A stretch of 64,000 bases of DNA, taken from Nanobdellota archaeon (GTDB lineage Archaea; Nanobdellota; Nanobdellia; CSSed11-243R1). The stretch covers positions 4,123 through 68,122 of the forward strand of contig JAGGWW010000006.1 in the NCBI GenBank assembly GCA_021163365.1, in the 5' to 3' direction. Within the stretch, counting starts at the first letter, position 1. Every line of letters begins with the position of its first letter. Made by a program: the position numbers and the translations under genes. Positions 9,871 to 54,184 of the stretch are shown piece by piece. Below the pieces are notes generated by a model, which was not told the origin of the DNA, searched no databases, and saw nothing but the letters and a program-made list of their open reading frames with translations.

Positions 9871-12800
9871 ATGAAGCCAATTGATATAAAAGATAAAATA
9901 CCAAAAGAGCTATTTGAAAAATTAACTATTGATAAGTTTACTCCACCACAGGAGCTTGCAATAAAAAAGGGTTTGTTAGATGGTAAAAATCTTGTTGTTG
10001 CAAGCCCAACAGCATCTGGTAAAACACTAATTGCTGAAATAGCATGTGTTAAAAACATTCTTGAAAAAGGTGGGAAAGCAATTTATTTAACACCTTTAAA
10101 ATCTCTTGCTTCTGAGAAATATAATGAGTTCAAAGAAAAGTATCCTTTTCTAAACATAATGCTTTCAATTGGAGACTATGACTCAAGTGACCCATGGCTT
10201 CAAAAAGCAGACATTATTGTTTGCTCAAATGAAAAGCTTGATTCTTTGATAAGACACAATGTACCATGGCTACATGAGATTAACACTATTGTAATAGATG
10301 AAATTCATGTTTTAGACCAACCAGACAGAGGACCCACTCTTGAAATATTAATAACAAGACTAAAAGAATTTTGTAAAAATGCACAAATAATTGCGCTCTC
10401 TGCAACAATTCAAAATGCAAAAGAGTTAGCAGAATGGTTAAATGCAAATCTTGTGAAAAGCAATTATCGTCCAGTTGAACTTGAATATGGAGTTTATCTT
10501 GATGGCAAACTTTACTTTGAAGATAAAACTATTGATTTGCCAGAAGCAAAAATACCAGAGCATCAAATAATAAAAGATACTTTAAACATGAAAAAACAAA
10601 TACTGATTTTTCTTTCAAGCAGAAGAAATGCGGAAGCTGTTGCAAAAAATGCAAAAACAGTTGTTGAAAGATATTTGACAAAAGAAGAAAAAGAAAAACT
10701 TCAAAAAATAAGTGATGAGATATTACATGTTTTAGAATCTCCAACAAAACAATGTGAAGTTTTAAGTGAATGTGTAAAACATGGTGTTGCTTTTCATCAT
10801 GCAGGGCTTGTTGGAAAACAGCAAAGGATGATTGAAGAAGCATTTAAACAAGGACTAATTAAATTAATAGCTGCAACTCCAACTCTTTGTCTTGACGCTT
10901 CTGTTGAGATTTGGAATGGGATGAAAAATGTTAAAGTATCAGAAATGAAGCATAACTCTGTTTGGGCATTAAGCAAAGATAAGCTTCTGCAAATTCATCC
11001 AAAACAAGTTAATATTCTTGAAGCTCCAAAAGAAATGGTGGAATTAATTACTACATCTGGAGATAGAATAACACTAACAAAGAACCATAAAATATTAATA
11101 AAAAGGGGCAAAAAGAAGCTTTTAATACCTGCTAGTGAAGTAGAAGCTGGAGATAAAGTGGCACTTGCAGGAAATCTCAGAATGGAAGGGATGTCAGTTA
11201 AATGGGGTGACTTTCTAAGAGATAAAAAAGTTCCATTTGATGACTTGGAACCAAACGAAGATGTGTTCTATTTCATCGGAGCTATGCTTGGAGATGGGTA
11301 TTCTGGCGCAGAATTAAATAATGATAAGTTAATCTTAAAGGGTAGCCCTTGTATTGTGGGTGAAGATAAAGAAGTATTTGATAGGATAAAGAAACTCTTG
11401 AATAAGTATAAAATACACTATAGAGAAAGGCATAGTTCATATGGTGTTCCCGAATTGATTATTTCTAAATCGAATTGGTTGCGTGAGTTTTTGGCGAGAT
11501 GTGGGGTTGTGAAGGGGGAAGAAAAATTCATAAATGAAAAACTTTTAATGGCGAAAAAAGAATTTCTTGCACATTTAATTCAGGGATTATTTGATACAGA
11601 TGGATGTGTAGAAAAGAAAACGTTAAGAATAAGCTTTTCAAGTAACTCATTTAAATTAATTCACTCTTTGAAAAGAGCTCTTTTAAGATATGGGATTGTC
11701 ACATCTTATAGGAAAAGAAAGTGTGGGGAAATAAAAATCGGAGCTCGTAAATATGAAACAAAAGAAAATTTCGAACTGTACATTCAACATAGAGAAAGCA
11801 TACTTAAGTTTTATCAACAGATAGGATTTGGCATAAAAAGAAAACAAAAGGAATTAGAAAAAATAGTAAAAAGAATTAAGAACAATATTGTAAGCGTTAG
11901 TTGTAAAAAATGTGGGTATACTTTACCAACTGAGATATTTACTGGAAGGAATTCAAGTCAAAAGAAGTGGGGAAAACAAAGGCTAAAAATAATAACTCTT
12001 TTGGGAAAAGAAAAAGAATTGCCTTCTTCTGAAATTAGAAGGAAACTTGGTTTCGTACCTTGGAAAAAGGAACGAAGATTAAATACACATTTCATACTAA
12101 TTGAAAGAAAAAGAAAGGGGAAGCATGTAATATGGAAACTAAATAGCTTAGGAAAATGGGTGTATAAAAATGTAATTAAAGGTAATAAGAGCATTAAAGA
12201 CGCCATTGGGGATAGATGCCCAATATGTAATGCAAAGCTTAAGAAAAACCTAAAAGGAACTTGGAAAAAAGAAGATTTTGAAGGTGATATATACTGGTGC
12301 AAATTAAAAGAAATACATAAGGTTGCTCCAACCACAGATAAAGTTTATGACATAGTTCTCTCAAATGGTAACCATGACCACCTTTTTGTTGCGAATGGTT
12401 TTATTGTCCATAATTCTTTTGGTGTCAATCTTCCAAGCCACACAGTTCTTGTAAGGGATTTAAAAAGATATTCTCCAGAATATGGTAGCAATTGGATTCC
12501 TGTTTTGGAAGTTCAACAGTTTTTTGGAAGAGCTGGGCGTCCAAAGTTTGACAAAGAAGGAAGAGCTTTAATGATTGCTCGCTCAGAAATAGAAAAAGAT
12601 GAAATTTTTGAAAAGTATGTTAAGGGCGAGCCAGAAGAAATCTATTCAAAGCTTTCAGCTGAGCCAATTCTTAGAATGCAAGTTCTTGGATTAATTGCAA
12701 CTGGAGAGATTTCAAACAAGAAAAATTTGCTAAATTTTTTCTCAAAAACATTTTTTGCATATCAATATTCAGACATAAAAAGAATTGAGGTAAAGCTTGA

Positions 12801-13539
12801 CAAAATCATAAAATTGCTAATCGATTATGGATTTTTGATAAAACATAAAGATAAAATTCTTCCAACCCAAATTGGGAAAAGAGTTGCAGAGCTTTACATT
12901 GACCCAGAATCAGCTCACTTGTTAATTGAAAAAATAAAAACAAAAAGAAAAAGTGAAATCTTTTGGTTGCATGCGATTTGCTCATGCACAGAAATGTTTC
13001 CTTTACTTAAGGTTTCACCAAAAGAGTTTAACGACTTTCAAAAGATTTACCTTGATTTTGCAAACGAGCTTGATGAGCCAAATCCTTGGGATTTAAATTA
13101 CGAGACATGGATAAATGCTTTTAAAACAGCTTTAATGCTTTTTGATTGGATAAATGAAAAAACAGAAGCAAGAATACTTGAGGAATATAAGGAAACACCA
13201 GGTGTCTTAAGAAACAGAATATACATTGCTGACTGGCTTCTTTATTCTGCTTATGAATTAGCAAGGATTATGAAAGCAAAAGAATTGCTCTTGCCACTTA
13301 ACAAATTGCGCTTAAGAGTTAAAAACGGTATTAAAGAAGAATTGCTTAATCTTCTTCAGCTTGAAGGAATTGGAAGGGTTAAAGCAAGAAAGCTTTATCG
13401 CGCTGGCATAAAAAAGATTTCAGATATCAAAAAAGTTCCTCAAGAAAAATTAGCAGAAATAATTGGTCCCAAAACAGCGCTAAAGGTAAAAAAGCAGGTT
13501 GAGAAAAATTTAAATTCAAAACAAACAACTATTAATTAG
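9871..13539 (+). CDS. hel308: Hel308/Hjm-type Ski2-like DNA helicase, interrupted by an in-frame intein
   Basis: Walker A ASPTASGKT; DEIH box (IVIDEIHVL). The helicase motif ATPTL...GVNLP is split by a 509-aa insertion. C-terminal region has HhH-like ELLNLLQLEGIGRVKARKL. Confidence 0.8.
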   Translation: MKPIDIKDKIPKELFEKLTIDKFTPPQELAIKKGLLDGKNLVVASPTASGKTLIAEIACVKNILEKGGKAIYLTPLKSLASEKYNEFKEKYPFLNIMLSIGDYDSSDPWLQKADIIVCSNEKLDSLIRHNVPWLHEINTIVIDEIHVLDQPDRGPTLEILITRLKEFCKNAQIIALSATIQNAKELAEWLNANLVKSNYRPVELEYGVYLDGKLYFEDKTIDLPEAKIPEHQIIKDTLNMKKQILIFLSSRRNAEAVAKNAKTVVERYLTKEEKEKLQKISDEILHVLESPTKQCEVLSECVKHGVAFHHAGLVGKQQRMIEEAFKQGLIKLIAATPTLCLDASVEIWNGMKNVKVSEMKHNSVWALSKDKLLQIHPKQVNILEAPKEMVELITTSGDRITLTKNHKILIKRGKKKLLIPASEVEAGDKVALAGNLRMEGMSVKWGDFLRDKKVPFDDLEPNEDVFYFIGAMLGDGYSGAELNNDKLILKGSPCIVGEDKEVFDRIKKLLNKYKIHYRERHSSYGVPELIISKSNWLREFLARCGVVKGEEKFINEKLLMAKKEFLAHLIQGLFDTDGCVEKKTLRISFSSNSFKLIHSLKRALLRYGIVTSYRKRKCGEIKIGARKYETKENFELYIQHRESILKFYQQIGFGIKRKQKELEKIVKRIKNNIVSVSCKKCGYTLPTEIFTGRNSSQKKWGKQRLKIITLLGKEKELPSSEIRRKLGFVPWKKERRLNTHFILIERKRKGKHVIWKLNSLGKWVYKNVIKGNKSIKDAIGDRCPICNAKLKKNLKGTWKKEDFEGDIYWCKLKEIHKVAPTTDKVYDIVLSNGNHDHLFVANGFIVHNSFGVNLPSHTVLVRDLKRYSPEYGSNWIPVLEVQQFFGRAGRPKFDKEGRALMIARSEIEKDEIFEKYVKGEPEEIYSKLSAEPILRMQVLGLIATGEISNKKNLLNFFSKTFFAYQYSDIKRIEVKLDKIIKLLIDYGFLIKHKDKILPTQIGKRVAELYIDPESAHLLIEKIKTKRKSEIFWLHAICSCTEMFPLLKVSPKEFNDFQKIYLDFANELDEPNPWDLNYETWINAFKTALMLFDWINEKTEARILEEYKETPGVLRNRIYIADWLLYSAYELARIMKAKELLLPLNKLRLRVKNGIKEELLNLLQLEGIGRVKARKLYRAGIKKISDIKKVPQEKLAEIIGPKTALKVKKQVEKNLNSKQTTIN
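10888..12414 (+). mobile_element. intein with LAGLIDADG homing endonuclease domain inside hel308
   Basis: Begins with Cys (ATPTL|CLDAS) and ends ...IVHN|S (His-Asn then Ser +1 nucleophile). Two LAGLIDADG-like motifs (FYFIGAMLGDGYSG, LIQGLFDTDGCV). Removing it restores ATPTL-SFGVNLPS. Confidence 0.75.
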
Positions 13540-13542
13540 GGG

Positions 13543-13797
13543 GTGCATGAAGTGGGAGAAGCAATAGAATCTGGTTTCTTTGAATCTCAATTAGAAAAAA
13601 CTGCGCATGAAAAAATAAACATTGGAGGTAAAGAAATTTCTTTAAAAGGTGTGACATATGTAAAACCATATCTTTATAGATTAATAGAAGACAGATTAGA
13701 ACACCACAATTTTCTTGTTATGGGAAACAATGTTTATTTTAAACACGAAGGAGAAATATACACCTGGCATGGAAATAAACTTATGATAAAGAAATAA
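13543..13797 (+). CDS. hypothetical small protein
   Basis: 84-aa ORF directly after hel308. No motif. Confidence 0.25.
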   Translation: MHEVGEAIESGFFESQLEKTAHEKINIGGKEISLKGVTYVKPYLYRLIEDRLEHHNFLVMGNNVYFKHEGEIYTWHGNKLMIKK

Positions 13798-17883: not shown

Positions 17884-17981
17884 CCCCGCGTAGCTCAATG
17901 GTAGAGCGCTCGGCTGTAGTTGGTTTAACTGGAATTTCAGTTGAAACCGAGAGGTTGCTGGTTCGAATCCGGCCGCGGGGA
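17884..17981 (+). tRNA. tRNA-Tyr(GUA) with canonical-position intron
   Basis: Acceptor CCCCGCG/CGCGGGG with C1:G72 (archaeal Tyr identity). Anticodon stem CTCGG/CCGAG, loop CTGTAG then ~26-nt intron, T-arm GCTGG-TTCGAAT-CCGGC. Confidence 0.6.
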
Positions 17982-18800: not shown

Positions 18801-18901
18801 GGGCCCGTAGCTCAGCCTGGCAGAGCACCTGTTCAGCTTATGATCTTGCTGAGGTGAAGCTTTTAACCAGGGGGTCAGGGGTTCAAATCCCCTCGGGCCC
18901 A
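18801..18901 (+). tRNA. tRNA-Lys(UUU) with putative non-canonical intron in the anticodon stem
   Basis: Acceptor GGGCCCG/CGGGCCC; D-arm GCTC-AGCCTGGCA-GAGC. Removing ~27 nt (TTCAGCTTATGATCTTGCTGAGGTGAA) yields stem CCTGG/CCAGG around loop CTTTTAA. Confidence 0.55.
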
Positions 18902-41462: not shown

Positions 41463-42335
41463 TCACTTGCCCTCTGCCGGTGCATTGCGTGCTGGCAAAA
41501 AAGAGGGAATGAGTAAACAGGATTTCCTGTTTATGATGTAGGAAGGCAACAAGTGAAAATAGGTTGTGCTCGAAAGCGACCGTTAACTCCAGTTGATCCT
41601 GCTGGAGATCACTGCTTTCGGAGTCCGGCTAAACCATGCAAGTCAGCTGGCAGGGTGCTGCTGGCGGCGAACGGCTTAGTAACACGTAGACAACCTGCCC
41701 TTAGGTGGGGGATAACTCCGGGAAACTGGAGCTAATACCCCATAGGTGTTGGATACTGGAAGGTTCCAACACTGAAAGGGCTTAGGCTTTCCCCTAAGTT
41801 CCGCCTAAGGATGGGTCTGCGGCTGATCAGGCTGTTGGTGAGGTAACGGCTCACCAAACCTAAGACCAGTAGGGGCCGTGAGAGCGGGGGCCCCAAGAAG
41901 GGCACTGAGACAAGGGCCCTAGCCCTACGGGGTGCAGCAGGTGCGAAACTTCTGCAATGCCCGCAAGGGTGACAGAGGGACTCCGAGTGCTCATGCATTG
42001 CATGGGCTTTTGCCAAGTGTAAAAAGCTTGGCGAATAAGGGGTGGGCAAGACCGGTGGCAGCAGCCGCGGTAATACCGGCGCCCCAAGTGGTGATCGCGA
42101 TTATTGGGCCTAAAGCGTCCGTAGCCGGTTTGGTAAGTCTCTGGTGAAATCCATGCGCTTAACGTATGGGCGAGCCAGAGATACTGCCAAGCTAGGGACC
42201 GGGAGAAGCCAGGGGTATTCCTGGGGTAGGAGTAAAATCCTGTAATCCCAGGAGGACCACCGGTGGCGAAGGCGCCTGGCTAGAACGGGTCCGACGGTGA
42301 GGGACGAAAGCTGGGGGAGCAAACCGGATTAGATA

Positions 42336-42381
42336 GACCCTTTCCGCTGACGCGCAAAGCGTCTACGGAAAGTCCTAAATA
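42336..42381 (+). other. 16S insertion 1 (putative intron) splitting universal GGATTAGATACCC
   Basis: GACCCTTTCCGCTGACGCGCAAAGCGTCTACGGAAAGTCCTAAAT lies between GGATTAGATA and CCCGGGTAGTCC. It is near-identical to the tRNA-Asn and tRNA-Ile D-loop insertions. Boundaries +/- 2 nt. Confidence 0.6.
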
Positions 42382-42468
42382 CCCGGGTAGTCCCAGCTGT
42401 AAACGCTGCCTGTTAGGTGTTGCACATCGTTCGACGGTGTGCAGTGCCGAAGCGAAGGCATTAAACAG

Positions 42469-42499
<31 letters not shown>

Positions 42500-42677
42500 T
42501 TCCGGTTGGTTTGCCTCGGGTGCAAGCTGACCGTGACAGCTTACTTAAAGGAATAGGCGGGGGAGCACAACAAGGGGTGAAGCCTGCGGTTCAATTGGAT
42601 TCGACGCCAGGAATCTCACCAGGGCTGACAGCATGATGAAGGTCAGCCTGAAGGGCTTACCTGAAGCGCTGAGAGGT

Positions 42678-42787
<110 letters not shown>

Positions 42788-43193
42788 TCGCCACTAGTTG
42801 CTATTTCCTATCTTCGGATGGGAAAGCACACTAGTGGGACTGCCTGCGTAAGCAGGAGGAAGGTGAGGGCGACGTCAGGTCAGTATGCCCCGAATGCCCT
42901 GGGCTACACGCGGGCTGCAATGCCTCAGACAATGAGATGCAACGCCGAAAGGCGAAGCAAATCTCCTAAACTGAGGCTCAGTTCGGATCGAGGGTTGGGA
43001 CTCACCCTCGTGAAGACGGAATCCCTAGTAACCGCGTTTCAGCATGGCGCGGTGAATACGTCCCTGCTCCTTGCACTCACCGCCCGTCATACCATTCGAG
43101 TTGGGTGGGGATGAGGCTTCCCCTTTTGTTAGATCTTCGGATCTGGCAAAAGAGGAAGTCGAATCCTTGCTCAGCGAGAGGGGTAAAGTCGTC

Positions 43194-43236
<43 letters not shown>

Positions 43237-43937: not shown

Positions 43938-45245
43938 ATGGAATGGCATTTCCCTGTAAAAGAACTTGAGGGTGCTTTTAAAAAAGGCAATTATGAAGAA
44001 TATAAAAACACCCTTTCCAAATATTCAAGATATTTAGCTAAGTCCTTTGAGCTTTGTGAGGATAAAGAAAAGTTTAACACATATCTAATTAACATGGTTG
44101 GGTCAGACAACCAATTAGACAACTTAATTAATTTTCATCTAATGGCATTTTATCTTAAACAAGATAGAATATTAAAAAACAAAAAAATACCTTTAAAGAT
44201 TGCTCAAGAGGATTTAACAAAATTATTAGCATTAAAACAAGCAATAGAATTTCAAGAAAGTTCTCCAAATTTAGTTGAAAGAATAAGAAATTTAAGTTTG
44301 GGCAAAGGAAAAATAAAAGAATATTTTAAAAAACAATTTAATGAGTTTGCTAATGCTCTTGAAAAAGGAGAGGTTTCACTTTTTCATATGTTTTATGAAG
44401 AGAGCGAAGCTTACAAAAAACATTTTAAAATAAGCTGGAAAGAATTTGAAAGAGGTTATGAAGAAAAATGCGTTAAACAGCTTGAAGATATAACATTTGA
44501 AGAATTTCTTCAAGGGAATATTAATGATGAGGAAGCAATACAAACAATTTCATGGGTTGATGAATTTTTAAGAAGAGATACATACGATAATCAAAGATTG
44601 ATTGAAATTGTTGAAAACAATATAAATGGACTTAAGGAAATAGAAGATGAAAACATTTGCGGGCTTCTTGATGTAATTAAAGCGTTTATGAAAAAAGGTG
44701 AAATAAACCCAAAGCTTGCTTTTTCTATTTTAGAGTTTATCACAGACAAAGATATATCTCCAATTGTTAGAAATTATGGTTCTGATTATTATGAAGCTGA
44801 AAAACTTGTAAGGAGTATTGCAAACTTTGTTAATCAAGGAAAAATAGAGGATTTGGTTGATATAAATGACTCTATTGTTGAAGAAGGATATGTTTATGCT
44901 CATAAAGAACCAGAGTATATGGAAGAATCTTATGTTGTTTGTATTGATTTCAATACAAGTAAATTGCCAGAAGATTTAAAGAAAAAAGTAAAAGAGGTTG
45001 AAAGTGCAAAAAATGGTGCTTCTCTTCTTAAAAAGATGTATGAAACAAGACTTCAAGAAATAGAAAGCATTAGAAGACAAATAAGGATGGATTACATAAA
45101 GCAAAAAGATGAAAAAATTCTTAAAAAAATAAAAGAACTTGATGAAGAAATTGAAAATTATTATGCAAGAATAAACTATCTTGATGATGCTATTTCTGGG
45201 CTAAGAGATTTAAGCTTTGATTTAAGAAAAAGCAAAGATTTATAA
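43938..45245 (+). CDS. hypothetical protein (helical, acidic/Lys-rich)
   Basis: 435-aa ORF. No motif recognised. Confidence 0.35.
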   Translation: MEWHFPVKELEGAFKKGNYEEYKNTLSKYSRYLAKSFELCEDKEKFNTYLINMVGSDNQLDNLINFHLMAFYLKQDRILKNKKIPLKIAQEDLTKLLALKQAIEFQESSPNLVERIRNLSLGKGKIKEYFKKQFNEFANALEKGEVSLFHMFYEESEAYKKHFKISWKEFERGYEEKCVKQLEDITFEEFLQGNINDEEAIQTISWVDEFLRRDTYDNQRLIEIVENNINGLKEIEDENICGLLDVIKAFMKKGEINPKLAFSILEFITDKDISPIVRNYGSDYYEAEKLVRSIANFVNQGKIEDLVDINDSIVEEGYVYAHKEPEYMEESYVVCIDFNTSKLPEDLKKKVKEVESAKNGASLLKKMYETRLQEIESIRRQIRMDYIKQKDEKILKKIKELDEEIENYYARINYLDDAISGLRDLSFDLRKSKDL

Positions 45246-46670: not shown

Positions 46671-46784
46671 GGGCCCGTAGCGTAACGGTAACGCGCCCGC
46701 CTTGCAAGAGCCGGTGGCGGAAGTATCGGAACCGCTGTCGGTTCTGATCGCGGGAGACTTCGGGTTCGAATCCCGACGGGTCCA
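46671..46784 (+). tRNA. tRNA-Ala(UGC) with canonical-position intron (~42 nt)
   Basis: Acceptor GGGCCCG/CGGGTCC with G3:U70 (Ala identity) and discriminator A. Anticodon stem CCCGC/GCGGG with loop CTTGCA plus intron. T-arm TCGGG-TTCGAAT-CCCGA. Confidence 0.75.
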
Positions 46785-47042: not shown

Positions 47043-49045
47043 AATTTCTCTTAAACAAAGGCTGATGATTTATGATAATAAAATAGTGCCTTGAGCACCA
47101 ATGGTTTTTTCTTGTGAGTCAGCCTTTTATGTGTGCTTCCTGATCATACGATCTGGAAGCAAAAGGCATCCTCTTAACATGTTCAGCATGTTAATGATGC
47201 CGTGCATAGGGGAGCACCAGAATAGGCACTACGCTGCCAGGTGGATGGCTCGGCTCAGAAGCTGATGAAGGGCGTGGCAAGCTGCGATAAGCCTGGGGTA
47301 GCCGCACGCAGGCTAAGATCCCAGGATTCCCGAATGAGACTTCTTGGCATGCAGTAATGCATGTCACTCGGGTTGGTGATGAGCTAACCCGAGGAGGAAC
47401 TCCGCGAATTGAAACATCTTAGTAGCGGAAGGAAAAGAAATCAATTGAGATGCCGTTAGTAGGGGCGACCGAAAGCGGCATAGGGCAAACTGAACCATAT
47501 ATCGCAAGATATATGGGATGTGGTGTTTGGGAGCTGCGTATGCCAACTTCAAGGTGAAGCTGAACTCTGCTGGAAAGCAGGGCCATAGAGGGTGATAGCC
47601 CCGTAAGCGTAAGCCAAGAAGTTGGCGCAGTTTCCAGAGTACGCGGGGTTGAGATTCTCCGCGGAAATTGGGGGGCAATAACCTCCAACCCTAAATACTC
47701 TCTGAGACCGATAGCGAATTAGTACCGTGAGGGAACGCTGAAAAGTATCCAGAAATGGAGGTGAAAAGAACCTGAAACCTGGCAGCTACGGTATGCTGCG
47801 GCTCAAAAGGCTACTTCCTGAGCGAAGCTGTCGAAAGGCAGTTTTAGCAAAGGAAGTAGTTCCAGGGTTGCAGCGTTCCTTTCGGATAAAGAGGCAGGGA
47901 GTTTGTCTCAGTGGCGAGGCTAAGCTCAATTAAGAGCGGAGCCAAAGCGAAAGCAAAATGCGCGCAATCAGGGTTCTGATGAGGCGCTGCGTACGAAAGT
48001 GCGCGTAGTCACTGGGACAAGACCCGAAACCGCACGATCTACGCCTGGCTAGGACGAAATGAGGGGTTTCTCCCTCATGGAGGTCCGTAGGGGTGCTGCC
48101 TTTCAAAGCGCTCCCATGAGCTGGGTGTAGGGGTAAAAGGCCAATCATGTGCGGTGATAGCTGGTTCCTCCCGAAATGAGTCTCAGCTCAGCCCTACCAG
48201 AGCTTGCTAAGGGGGTAGAGCACTGATTGCGTATGCAGGGGTCGAGAGGCCTCGGTACGCAGTCAAACTCCGAATACCTTAGCAGCTAAGAAGGTAGGAG
48301 TGGGGGCACTGGGGTAAGCTCGGTGTCCAAGAGCGGAACAACGCAGACTGGAGTTAAGGTCCCAAAATGCTGGCTAAGTGATTTCGAACTTTGTCACCAG
48401 CCACAGACAGCCGGGAGGTAGGCTTAGAAGTAGCCATCCTTTAAAAAGTGTGTAACAGCTTACCGGTCGAGGCTGTTGGCGGGGAAAATGGACGGGTCTT
48501 AAGCCAGCTACCGATACTCCAGACCAGGATCCTTTGGATCCTGTGTGGTAGGGAGGCGTGTCGCATGGGCAGAAGCTGGTTCGTAAGGACCAGTGGACCG
48601 TGCGATAATGAGAATCCTGCCGGTAGTAGTAGCCTAGATGGGTGAGAATCCCATCCGCCTTAAGAGCCAGGGTTCCTCGGCAATGCTTCGTCAACCGAGG
48701 GTTAGTCGGTCCTAACCCATGTGGTAATTCCAACATGGGGAAAGGGAAGCAGGTTAATATTCCTGCACCACCTGGATACGTTCGGCAACGAAGGCTTGCC
48801 CAGTGACGCTTGGGGATAGGCAGAGCAGCACCGTCGTGCTGTTTAACAGGGATAAGTCCGGGGAGTTCTGTAATGGAGAGATCCGGACTAAACCTGGAAT
48901 AGCTGGCGTTTGCCAGTTCTGCTGATTCCTCGAGCCCGTGAAAAGCTGGGCAAGAAGGAGTCCAGGTGTCCGTACCGAGAACCGGGACAGGTGTCTCGGG
49001 CTTAGAAGGCTAAGGCGTGTAGGGATAAGTCAGTCAAGGGAAATC

Positions 49046-49078
<33 letters not shown>

Positions 49079-49825
49079 TGCCTGCGACAGTGATTCGATG
49101 AGAATTGTTGTCGCAGGTCGCAGTGACTAGGGGGGCTGGACTGTTTAACAAAAACATAGCTGGTTGCTAATCCGAAAGGATTTGTACAACCGGCGACGCC
49201 TGCCCAGTGCCGGTATCTGAAACCCTGGTTCAACAGGGCTAAGGACCGGTAAACGGCGGAGGTAACTGTAACCTTCTTAAGCAAGCGCAATGCCTTGCCA
49301 TTTAAATGATGGCTTTGCGAACGGCGTAACTAGGTCCCCACTGTCCCTGACTGACACCCTATGAACACACTATTCTGGTGCAAAGGCCAGAGACTCCCAT
49401 TGGGACGATAAGACCCCAGGAGCTTTACTACAGCCAGTACTTGCGTTTCAGGTTTTGGTGTATAGCGTAGGCAGGAGACGTCGAAGCACCCACGCTAGTG
49501 GGTGTGGAGTCGCCAATGTAACACTGCCCACCTGGATCTGGAGCGCTAACTTCAGGGAAAACCTGAAGGACAGGTATTGGTGGGTAGTTTGGCTGGGGTG
49601 GCACGCCCGCGATAAGGTATCACGGGTGCCCTAAGGTCGGCTCATCCGGGTCAGAAATCCGGAGAAGAGCGTAAGGGCAAAAGCCGGCCTGACTGTGTGT
49701 CAGACAGAAAGACACGCAGGGGCGAAAGCCGGGCCTAACGAACCACAGTGCCCTTTTATTGAGGGCCTGTGATGACCGAAAAGCTACCCTGGGGGTAACA
49801 GAGTTGTCGCGGACGAGAGCTCATA

Positions 49826-49912
49826 CAACCTTTCTTTTGAGAAAAGAAACGTTGACGAAAGAAAATTCTCTTTGGTCAAGCTTTCTCTTTTCAAGAGAAA
49901 GGTTGGCGCATA
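49826..49912 (+). other. 23S insertion 1 (putative intron, ~87 nt) at the conserved GAGCTCAYATCGAC site
   Basis: AACCTTTCTTTTGAGAAAAGAAACG...GCTTTCTCTTTTCAAGAGAAAGGTTGGCGCAT carries two copies of the CTTTC..GAAAG hairpin. It lies between GAGCTCATA and TCGACTCCGCGG. This is the same region where archaeal 23S introns are known. Confidence 0.55.
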
Positions 49913-49968
49913 TCGACTCCGCGGCTTGCTACATCGACGTCGGCTCCTCCCATCCTGGCTGTGCAGCA

Positions 49969-50013
49969 AACCTTTTCTTAGAAAGAAAAGCTTTACCAAA
50001 AGAAAAGGTCTGA
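49969..50013 (+). other. 23S insertion 2 (putative intron or expansion) within the H93-equivalent hairpin
   Basis: ACCTTTTCTTAGAAAGAAAAGCTTTACCAAAAGAAAAGGTCTG lies between CCTGGCTGTGCAGCAA and AGGCAGCCAAGGG. ACCTTTTCTT is exactly complementary to AAGAAAAGGT. Confidence 0.4.
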
Positions 50014-50404
50014 AGGCAGCCAAGGGTACGGGTGTTCACCGGTTAAAGGGGGTCGTGAGCTGGGTTCAGTACGCTGCGAGGCAGTACGGTTTTTATCTAG
50101 TGGGAGTGTCGGCCGACTGAGTGGAAGGTCCCCTTAGTACGAGAGGAACAGGGGATCGGCGCCTCTAGTCAACCGGTTGTCCGACAGGGCAGACGCCGGG
50201 TAGCCACGCGCTAGCAGATAAGTCCTGAACGCATCTAAGGACGAAGCTGCTCGCGAAAAAAGTCGGCCATGGCGCGGGAGTAGAAGACTCCGTTGATAGA
50301 GTCGGGGTGTAATCCCGTAAGGGGCAGCCCACGACTACTAATAGCGCCAAGCCTATTCTAAATCCCCTATGCACGGTGTCATATTTTCATCTTTAGAAAG
50401 AATG

Positions 50405-53884: not shown

Positions 53885-54184
53885 TGTGGGTGGGATAGGC
53901 AACTGTCGAACCTTTTCTTTGCTAAAAGAAAAGGTTTGAGGAAGTCCGTCCACCAAAAAGCCCAGCAGGGTAACCTGTCCGCAGAAATGCGGGGCTCTGA
54001 CGCAGAAAAATACCACAGCTTGTGCAAGATGATGTCGAAAGACTGATATTGCAAGCTTGTGGGTGAAATCGTCAGCCTGGGCGGTGCAAGCCTTAGGCGC
54101 TTAGTCGGATGTTGCCAATCCCTTCAAAGAAGTCGCAATTGTGCGACAGAGGGGATACAGAAGACGGGCTATTTCCCACCCACA
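53885..54184 (+). ncRNA. rnpB: RNase P RNA (putative, archaeal type A-like)
   Basis: GC-rich 300-nt non-coding block with terminal P1 pairing TGTGGGTGGGA/TCCCACCCACA and P2 ACTGTCG/CGACAG. P3 hairpin precedes the P4 strand GAGGAAGTCCG. GCAGGGTAACCTG and 3' ACAGAAGACGGGCTA match RNase P consensus (GGAAAGUCCGG...ACAGAANCCGGCUUA). Confidence 0.55.

Follow-up and report, generated by a model that had tools for sequence, protein, structure and literature searches.

The Hel308 helicase of Methanocaldococcus jannaschii carries the 'Mja Helicase' intein, which is listed in InBase and UniProt. Novikova et al. 2016 included the Ski2-like helicases (COG1204) among the archaeal intein hosts, with 11 cases, all of them in Euryarchaeota (PMC4760082). 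Beyer et al. 2022 described structurally varied 'accessory domains' that lie between the endonuclease and the splicing domain's C-terminal part (HINT-C) in archaeal homing inteins. The same authors showed that DNA cleavage is modulated by such domains and noted a helix-turn-helix-like form in TliVMA and PI-TkoII (PMC8966425). This study concerns an intein in the Hel308 gene of a small, uncultured Nanobdellota archaeon. The gene lies in a 64,000-nucleotide (nt) stretch of contig JAGGWW010000006.1 (assembly GCA_021163365.1, positions 4,123 to 68,122 of the forward strand), referred to as the window, and coordinates are counted from its first letter. A literature search found no paper on this Hel308 intein allele or its accessory domain and returned only the general Ski2-like listing (PMC4760082).

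The window intein resembles the COG1204 inteins in several respects. The host family (P-loop NTPase) is the same, the insertion site is a conserved ATPase/helicase motif, and the element is large and contains a LAGLIDADG endonuclease. The COG1204 cases of Novikova et al. 2016 were euryarchaeal, whereas the lineage of the window intein was found in DPANN and Asgard genomes. We are highly confident that the element is a class-1 intein that is mobile, has a LAGLIDADG homing endonuclease nested within it and interrupts Hel308 motif V in frame, between Leu339 and the Ser (ATPTL/SFGVNLP). It is real but unremarkable, belongs to an intein family already known to be widespread, and leaves the current understanding of inteins unchanged. 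Its contribution is a well-defined, widely distributed intein allele in motif V of the Hel308 helicase.

An in-frame intein in motif V of Hel308

The precursor is encoded by a Hel308/Hjm helicase open reading frame (ORF) with one intein at positions 9871..13539 (+), classified using Pfam and NCBIfam. The ORF is a single uninterrupted frame of 1222 codons (1222 aa plus stop) that contains the insert in frame. The N-extein (aa 1-339, 9871..10887, +) comprises RecA1 and the first part of RecA2, and ends in IAATPTL, the first half of superfamily 2 (SF2) motif V. The insert follows as ORF residues 340-848. The C-extein (374 aa, 12415..13536, +) begins with the Ser+1 nucleophile, and its first residues, SFGVNLPSH, complete motif V. 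Beyond motif V it contains motif VI (GRAGRP), the winged-helix and ratchet domains, domain 4 and a helix-hairpin-helix (HhH) domain. In the precursor Pfam identified DEAD, Helicase_dom4_arc and HHH_5. The NCBIfam models PRK02362, PRK00254 and helicase_Hel308 each matched the precursor in two pieces with a break at residue 340. PRK02362, an equivalog model, scored 723 bits against a cut-off of 887, a score that applies to the precursor form.

Excision of the insert in silico generated a 713-aa protein with the junction ATPTL/SFGVNLPSH (junction peptide AATPTLSFGVNLPSH). The spliced product aligned along its full length with P. furiosus Hjm/Hel308 2zj2 (E 4e-165, residues 8-706), and the S. solfataricus (2va8) and A. 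fulgidus (2p6r) structures also matched it. In the 2zj2 alignment the junction falls inside 'vATPTLSaGiNtPa', a stretch that we take to be motif V of the RecA2 domain in SF2/Ski2-like helicases. Pfam did not detect Helicase_C in the precursor (11.1 bits, E 0.5). In the spliced sequence it scored 33.5 bits (cut-off 23.5) over residues 294-382, spanning the junction, and because the domain reappears there, exact excision restores the host. The Pfam domains of the spliced product were DEAD, Helicase_C, Helicase_dom4_arc and HHH_5, and the spliced host has the five-domain architecture of Hel308 (RecA1, RecA2, winged helix, ratchet, HhH). The host of the intein is thus the archaeal DNA-repair helicase Hel308.

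A sequence-only reading of the window had placed a 509-aa insert at 10888-12414, with Cys directly after ATPTL, HN followed by Ser at its end, and a spliced helicase of ~713 aa. Translation showed all of these to be exact. The same reading had named Hel308 as the host, which agrees with the broken NCBIfam matches and the 2zj2 alignment, and had proposed that the insert splits a conserved helicase motif which excision makes whole, as was found for motif V and Helicase_C.

The intein (10888..12414, +) has the class 1 arrangement Cys1 ... His508-Asn509, and its assignment draws on Pfam, the TIGR models, an AlphaFold2 model and Foldseek. Its translation is exactly 509 residues, beginning with CLDASVEI and ending with FIVHN. 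Pfam Intein_splicing (PF14890) matched insert residues 10-509 with 61.1 bits (E 1.5e-16, cut-off 35.8). NCBIfam supplied TIGR matches to intein_Nterm and intein_Cterm (TIGR01443 at the C-terminus), together with partial matches to intein-containing equivalogs such as RpoA'', DnaB, IF-2, GyrA and RtcB. In a sequence search of the PDB the C-terminal 46-62 residues resembled the TFIIB mini-intein (5o9j), while the N-terminal part resembled the CDC21 intein, with the TFIIB mini-intein also matching.

All of the canonical blocks A, B, C, E, F and G are present in the insert. Block A, with Cys1, and block B, T64-K-N-H67 (11077-11088, +), fall in the N-terminal portion of the splicing (HINT) domain (intein aa 1-105, 10888..11202, +). 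The C-terminal HINT segment (12274..12414, +) contains block F (VYD488 ... DH498) and block G (VH508-N509), and the intein ends in VYD488...DH498LFVANGFIVH508N509/S. In an alignment of 48 homologues C1, T64, H67, H498, H508 and N509 were invariant, as were V486 and G504, and D488 was conserved in at least 90%. Cys1 was invariant in 84 homologous inteins, and Ser+1 was present in 84/84 of the intein-bearing homologues. The insert is therefore a canonical class-1 intein with a LAGLIDADG endonuclease domain.

One could also suppose that the insert is a lineage-specific helicase domain without intein blocks, the case that the sequence-only reading had named as its own refutation, or that it arose through misassembly or gene fusion. 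We give these explanations practically no credence. The intein blocks are all present and invariant, the intein hidden Markov models scored above their cut-offs, and the structural matches are inteins. Furthermore, independent contigs from many samples share this insert and its site, and a near-identical 1222-aa protein (P0001) is encoded on another contig.

Protein splicing of the 1222-aa precursor is predicted from the conserved residues and the established intein pathway. Once the precursor had folded, Cys1 would attack the carbonyl of Leu(-1) in an N-S acyl shift, with assistance from Thr64 and His67 of block B. The thioester would pass to the hydroxyl of Ser+1 by transesterification. Cyclisation of Asn509, assisted by His508 and the Asp and His of block F, would release the intein. 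An O-N shift would then produce a normal peptide bond, giving a 713-aa active Hel308 with motif V and RecA2 intact.

Endonuclease and accessory domains

The LAGLIDADG homing endonuclease domain spans intein aa ~121-330 (11248..11877, +) and was delimited using Pfam, invariant residues and Foldseek. Pfam LAGLIDADG_3 (PF14528) matched it in two stretches with 66.5 bits (E 2.6e-18, cut-off 22.5), which, like the Intein_splicing score, is well above anything due to chance. The two LAGLIDADG-like blocks that had been read from the sequence are FYFIGAMLGDG (motif 1, block C, 11266-11298, +), with the acidic residue D136, and HLIQGLFDTDG (motif 2, block E, 11572-11604, +), with the acidic residue D238. 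The check by Pfam models that had been proposed with them thus placed both Intein_splicing and LAGLIDADG_3 above their curated cut-offs. G135-D136-G137 and D236, D238 and G239 were invariant in the 48 homologues, along with many further positions of the domain. The modelled secondary structure of residues 124-331 fits a pseudo-symmetric alpha-beta-beta-alpha-beta-beta-alpha core, and Foldseek matched I-DmoI, I-Tsp061I and I-SceI with a target-based template modelling (TM) score of 0.65-0.70. The domain is of the monomeric, two-motif LAGLIDADG type, with activity predicted from its conserved catalytic residues.

An AlphaFold2 model of the whole intein was built with the 48 homologues (mean predicted local distance difference test (pLDDT) 94.4, predicted TM score (pTM) 0.88). 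It consists of HINT-N (all-beta, residues 1-94), the two-fold alpha/beta endonuclease core, an extra domain and HINT-C. The best PDB matches by Foldseek were solved endonuclease-bearing inteins, namely TliVMA 7qss (E 1e-18), PI-PfuI 1dq3, PhoVMA 7qst, PI-TkoII 2cw7 and PI-SceI 1vde. The free-standing LAGLIDADG enzymes I-Tsp061I, I-DmoI and I-SceI came next in the list, as did mini-inteins.

The extra domain (intein aa 331-462, 11878..12273, +) is a winged helix-turn-helix with a predicted 4-Cys zinc ribbon. Its ~130 aa follow the last endonuclease helix (317-331) and precede the HINT-C strand at 468, and by this position it is an intein accessory domain (ACD) in the sense of Beyer et al. 2022. 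The predicted fold is a MarR/ArsR-type winged helix. Modelled alone, the domain had a pLDDT of 93, and its two knuckles, CKKC (11902-11913, +) and CPIC (12217-12228, +), adjoin predicted hairpins on either side. All four Cys were invariant in 84/84 inteins. No Pfam family matched the domain at its cut-off, the zinc-ribbon and rubredoxin-like matches all being below theirs. A profile of the domain was searched against 1.84 billion representative proteins and produced only 24 matches. By length and by place of the match these fit Hel308-intein proteins or pieces of them, and in this search nothing related in sequence was found beyond Hel308-type proteins. The sequence family thus appears private to the Hel308 motif V intein lineage.

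Comparison with the solved inteins identified similar architectures with different modules. TliVMA (7qss, E 1e-18) and PI-TkoII (2cw7, E 1e-12), which ranked first and fifth among the structural matches, have the same order of HINT-N, LAGLIDADG endonuclease, accessory domain and HINT-C, and their helix-turn-helix-like accessory domains are implicated in DNA recognition (PMC8966425). They differ from the window intein in their hosts, V-ATPase A (P-loop site) and DNA polymerase respectively, and are only 11-17% identical in sequence. Unlike theirs, the window domain forms a complete winged helix, with a predicted CxxC...CxxC zinc ribbon closing it. PI-PfuI, the ribonucleotide reductase (RNR) intein of P. 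furiosus (1dq3, overall fold match E 2e-16), has the DNA-contacting Stirrup domain at the same position. The possibility that the window domain is a Stirrup was rejected because the fold classes differ, the Stirrup being YcfA/dsRBD-like (PMC3969222) and the window domain a MarR/ArsR-type winged helix. PI-SceI, the yeast VMA1 intein (E 1e-10) and archetype of the mechanism, shares class-1 splicing, a two-motif LAGLIDADG endonuclease and an extra DNA recognition region. In PI-SceI this region is an insertion within HINT (PMC8966425), whereas in the window intein the accessory domain sits between the endonuclease and HINT-C; the PI-SceI host is eukaryotic and the window host archaeal.

By analogy with other homing-intein accessory domains, the window domain most probably adds DNA contacts beside the cleavage site. 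Neither its position nor its presumed role is new, and the sole mildly novel feature of the intein is this apparently lineage-restricted winged helix with a predicted zinc clasp. Such a module would extend the catalogue of homing-intein DNA-recognition modules and may interest meganuclease engineers. In the proposed homing cycle the freed 509-aa protein would act as a monomeric two-motif LAGLIDADG endonuclease and would cut an intein-less allele at the ATPTL/SFGVN coding sequence via its LAGLIDADG saddle, with the winged-helix domain supplying extra contacts during recognition. Repair of the cut allele would then copy the intein in.

Distribution and history of the intein

The distribution of the intein was examined in protein clusters and in genomes. 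Among the best 120 database matches an intein was present at the same ATPTL/S site in at least 84 protein clusters. Without exception these 84 inteins start with Cys and end with HN followed by Ser, and their lengths are 502-516 aa, plus one of 484 aa. A genome scan was then made with one genome per GTDB species, using patterns from the endonuclease domain, which are uninformative on the lineage of the M. jannaschii intein. It identified ~60 loci in species-representative genomes with a full-length relative (39-46% identity). The labels of these loci are Woesearchaeota, Nanoarchaeota, Aenigmatarchaeota, Iainarchaeota, Hermod-, Borr-, Heimdall- and Atabeyarchaeia/Promethearchaeota, and 'uncultured Methanosarcinales' metagenome-assembled genomes (MAGs). 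With at least 84 clusters and ~60 species-level genomes in DPANN and Asgard, the motif V intein is not rare, and the statement in the sequence-only reading that Hel308 inteins are known in a few archaea was too modest. In the database several homologues go under the name "LAGLIDADG family homing endonuclease" or "hypothetical protein". The appropriate annotation of the locus is a single, intein-bearing Hel308 gene.

Two variants of the gene were seen among the homologues. Four of them (P0049, P0055, P0058 and P0069) have a second intein of ~150-470 aa in motif VI (Q..F/GRAGRP) beside the one in motif V, so Hel308 has at least two intein insertion sites. The window Hel308 has the motif V intein only; its equivalent of the motif VI site is at ~aa 880-887, nt ~12510-12531. 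In ~30 Woesearchaeota-type genomes the intein-bearing Hel308 gene is without RecA1 (DEAD), and similarity starts at about query residue 236 (loci including L007, L009, L011, L013, L017-L020, L022, L023, L025, L027, L028 and L030; proteins P0080-P0120). For several of these proteins the sole annotation is 'LAGLIDADG family homing endonuclease'. RecA1-coding sequence was not found within ~2.7 kb upstream of these genes, and the loci suggest a split Hel308 gene with its N-terminal part encoded elsewhere.

Alignment with intein-free orthologues, another check proposed with the sequence-only reading, identified empty sites in close relatives. Five orthologues (P0002-P0004, P0006 and P0007; 701-720 aa) read ATPTL[A/S]FGVNLPSH, are 81-88% identical to the window extein and are colinear with it across the junction. 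One of these, P0003, is encoded on a 71.5-kb Nanoarchaeota MAG contig (L001), where it has the same neighbours as the window gene, DUF763 upstream and M17 peptidase downstream. The colinearity extends to DNA: the joined flanks of the window intein aligned with L001 ungapped at the junction (74/90 nt identical), and identity over the whole gene was 81%. P0003 has Ser at the +1 position (ATPTLSFG), where the closest relatives have Ala. We considered this Ser as a footprint of precise intein loss and rejected this reading because the intein-free P. furiosus Hjm also reads ATPTLSAG.

All orthologues whose exteins were 67% or more identical to that of the window (67-88%) were intein-free, and every intein-bearing homologue had an extein identity of 52.5% or less. 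This pattern fits horizontal gain by homing from an unsampled donor, and loss of the intein in about a dozen relatives is the less parsimonious history. The intein-free near relatives are natural homing substrates and would be convenient for studying how uncultured archaea of the DPANN and Asgard groups gain and lose inteins.

Divergence of the intein was compared with that of its host in 73 homologues. The intein was slightly the more conserved of the two, with a mean pairwise distance of 0.547 vs 0.578 for the flanking extein, and the two sets of distances showed a moderate correlation (Pearson 0.58, Spearman 0.23, Mantel p 0.001). Mean identity was 0.48 in the endonuclease domain, 0.45 in the accessory domain and 0.37 in HINT-N. 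Since the endonuclease and accessory domains are no less conserved than HINT-N, these values argue for purifying selection on the whole intein, nuclease included.

The same comparison bears on whether the intein is still mobile. It might instead be a 'fixed' element late in the homing cycle, competent in splicing but dead as an endonuclease and inherited vertically. Long residence would fit the Pearson and Mantel results, and the composition of the intein matches that of its host: GC is 0.324 vs 0.313/0.325, and the codon-usage distance from intein to extein is about that between host genes. PhoVMA is a precedent for an intact-looking endonuclease domain that can be inactive (PMC8966425). However, both LAGLIDADG acidic residues and many other endonuclease positions are invariant, and decay would not be expected to leave the domain conserved like the rest of the element (0.48 vs 0.37 for HINT-N). 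Close relatives are intein-free, and a horizontal gain is simpler than about a dozen independent losses. We therefore felt that a fixed, non-mobile intein was unlikely.

As a further alternative, the intein could have been co-opted as a regulator of Hel308, with the winged-helix zinc domain sensing DNA or redox/metal state and gating splicing (conditional protein splicing). It is at least as conserved as its host, its length is nearly fixed across DPANN and Asgard, its accessory domain appears confined to this lineage, and the catalytic motif that it interrupts is essential. The literature has discussed conditional splicing for inteins of archaeal repair proteins (Belfort 2017, as cited in PMC8301817). 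Against this, closely related genomes do without the intein, which is therefore dispensable, and DNA-binding accessory domains are normal in homing inteins, so that regulation is not needed as an explanation (PMC8966425). Such a regulator is very unlikely. A related reading, also unlikely, is that the accessory domain is more than a generic DNA clamp. It would be a lineage-defining recognition module through which a single intein could have persisted in DPANN and Asgard, under purifying selection as strong as that on the host, and could also couple splicing of the repair helicase to DNA, metal or redox state.

Our preferred interpretation, a mobile homing intein, has several points to its disadvantage. 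The analysis shows the anatomy and fold of the element, its exact insertion, its conservation and the occurrence of intein-free alleles, whereas splicing, DNA cleavage and DNA binding are predicted activities, and zinc binding by the accessory domain is predicted from the four invariant Cys and the modelled fold. At intein residue 471 (12298-12300), where the first HINT strand of the C-terminal segment begins, the window intein has Cys where 96% of the 84 homologues have Asp; the near-identical database twin P0001 shares this Cys. The closest sampled intein is only 54% identical, and so no donor was identified. Lastly, GC and codon usage contained no compositional signature of recent transfer.

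Genomic context

The genes around Hel308 were surveyed with Pfam scans of 20 neighbouring and large ORFs, plus an Rfam scan. They include an ATP-dependent DNA ligase, radical SAM, DUF763, nitroreductase and M17 aminopeptidase genes, the RNA polymerase B''/B'/A'/A'' operon, Topo VI B/A, PFOR, 16S and 23S rRNA and RNase P RNA. No second intein was detected among the 20 ORFs. Because the neighbours are housekeeping genes, the earlier description of the locus as element-rich is unsupported. Directly downstream of Hel308, an 84-aa ORF (13543-13797, +) had no Pfam match at E <= 1e-5.

The 16S rRNA gene (41586-43234) matched its Rfam model over 1649 nt, ~170 nt longer than the model (1478), and the 23S rRNA match (47217-50361) was ~160 nt longer than its model. 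Small insertions in both genes are possible. The interval between them is ~4 kb and contains four protein-size ORFs and one tRNA; the two genes therefore do not form a compact operon. A 435-aa ORF in this interval (43938-45245, +) had no Pfam match at the same threshold.

Three Rfam tRNA matches were unusually long, at 98-114 nt (17884-17981, 18801-18901 and 46671-46784). These lengths far exceed that of a mature tRNA, and the three genes therefore probably contain introns. ARAGORN missed two of the three and called the third shorter. The archaeal RNase P RNA (Rfam RF00373, 144.8 bits) was identified at 53886-54183 (+), consistent with an archaeal chromosome.

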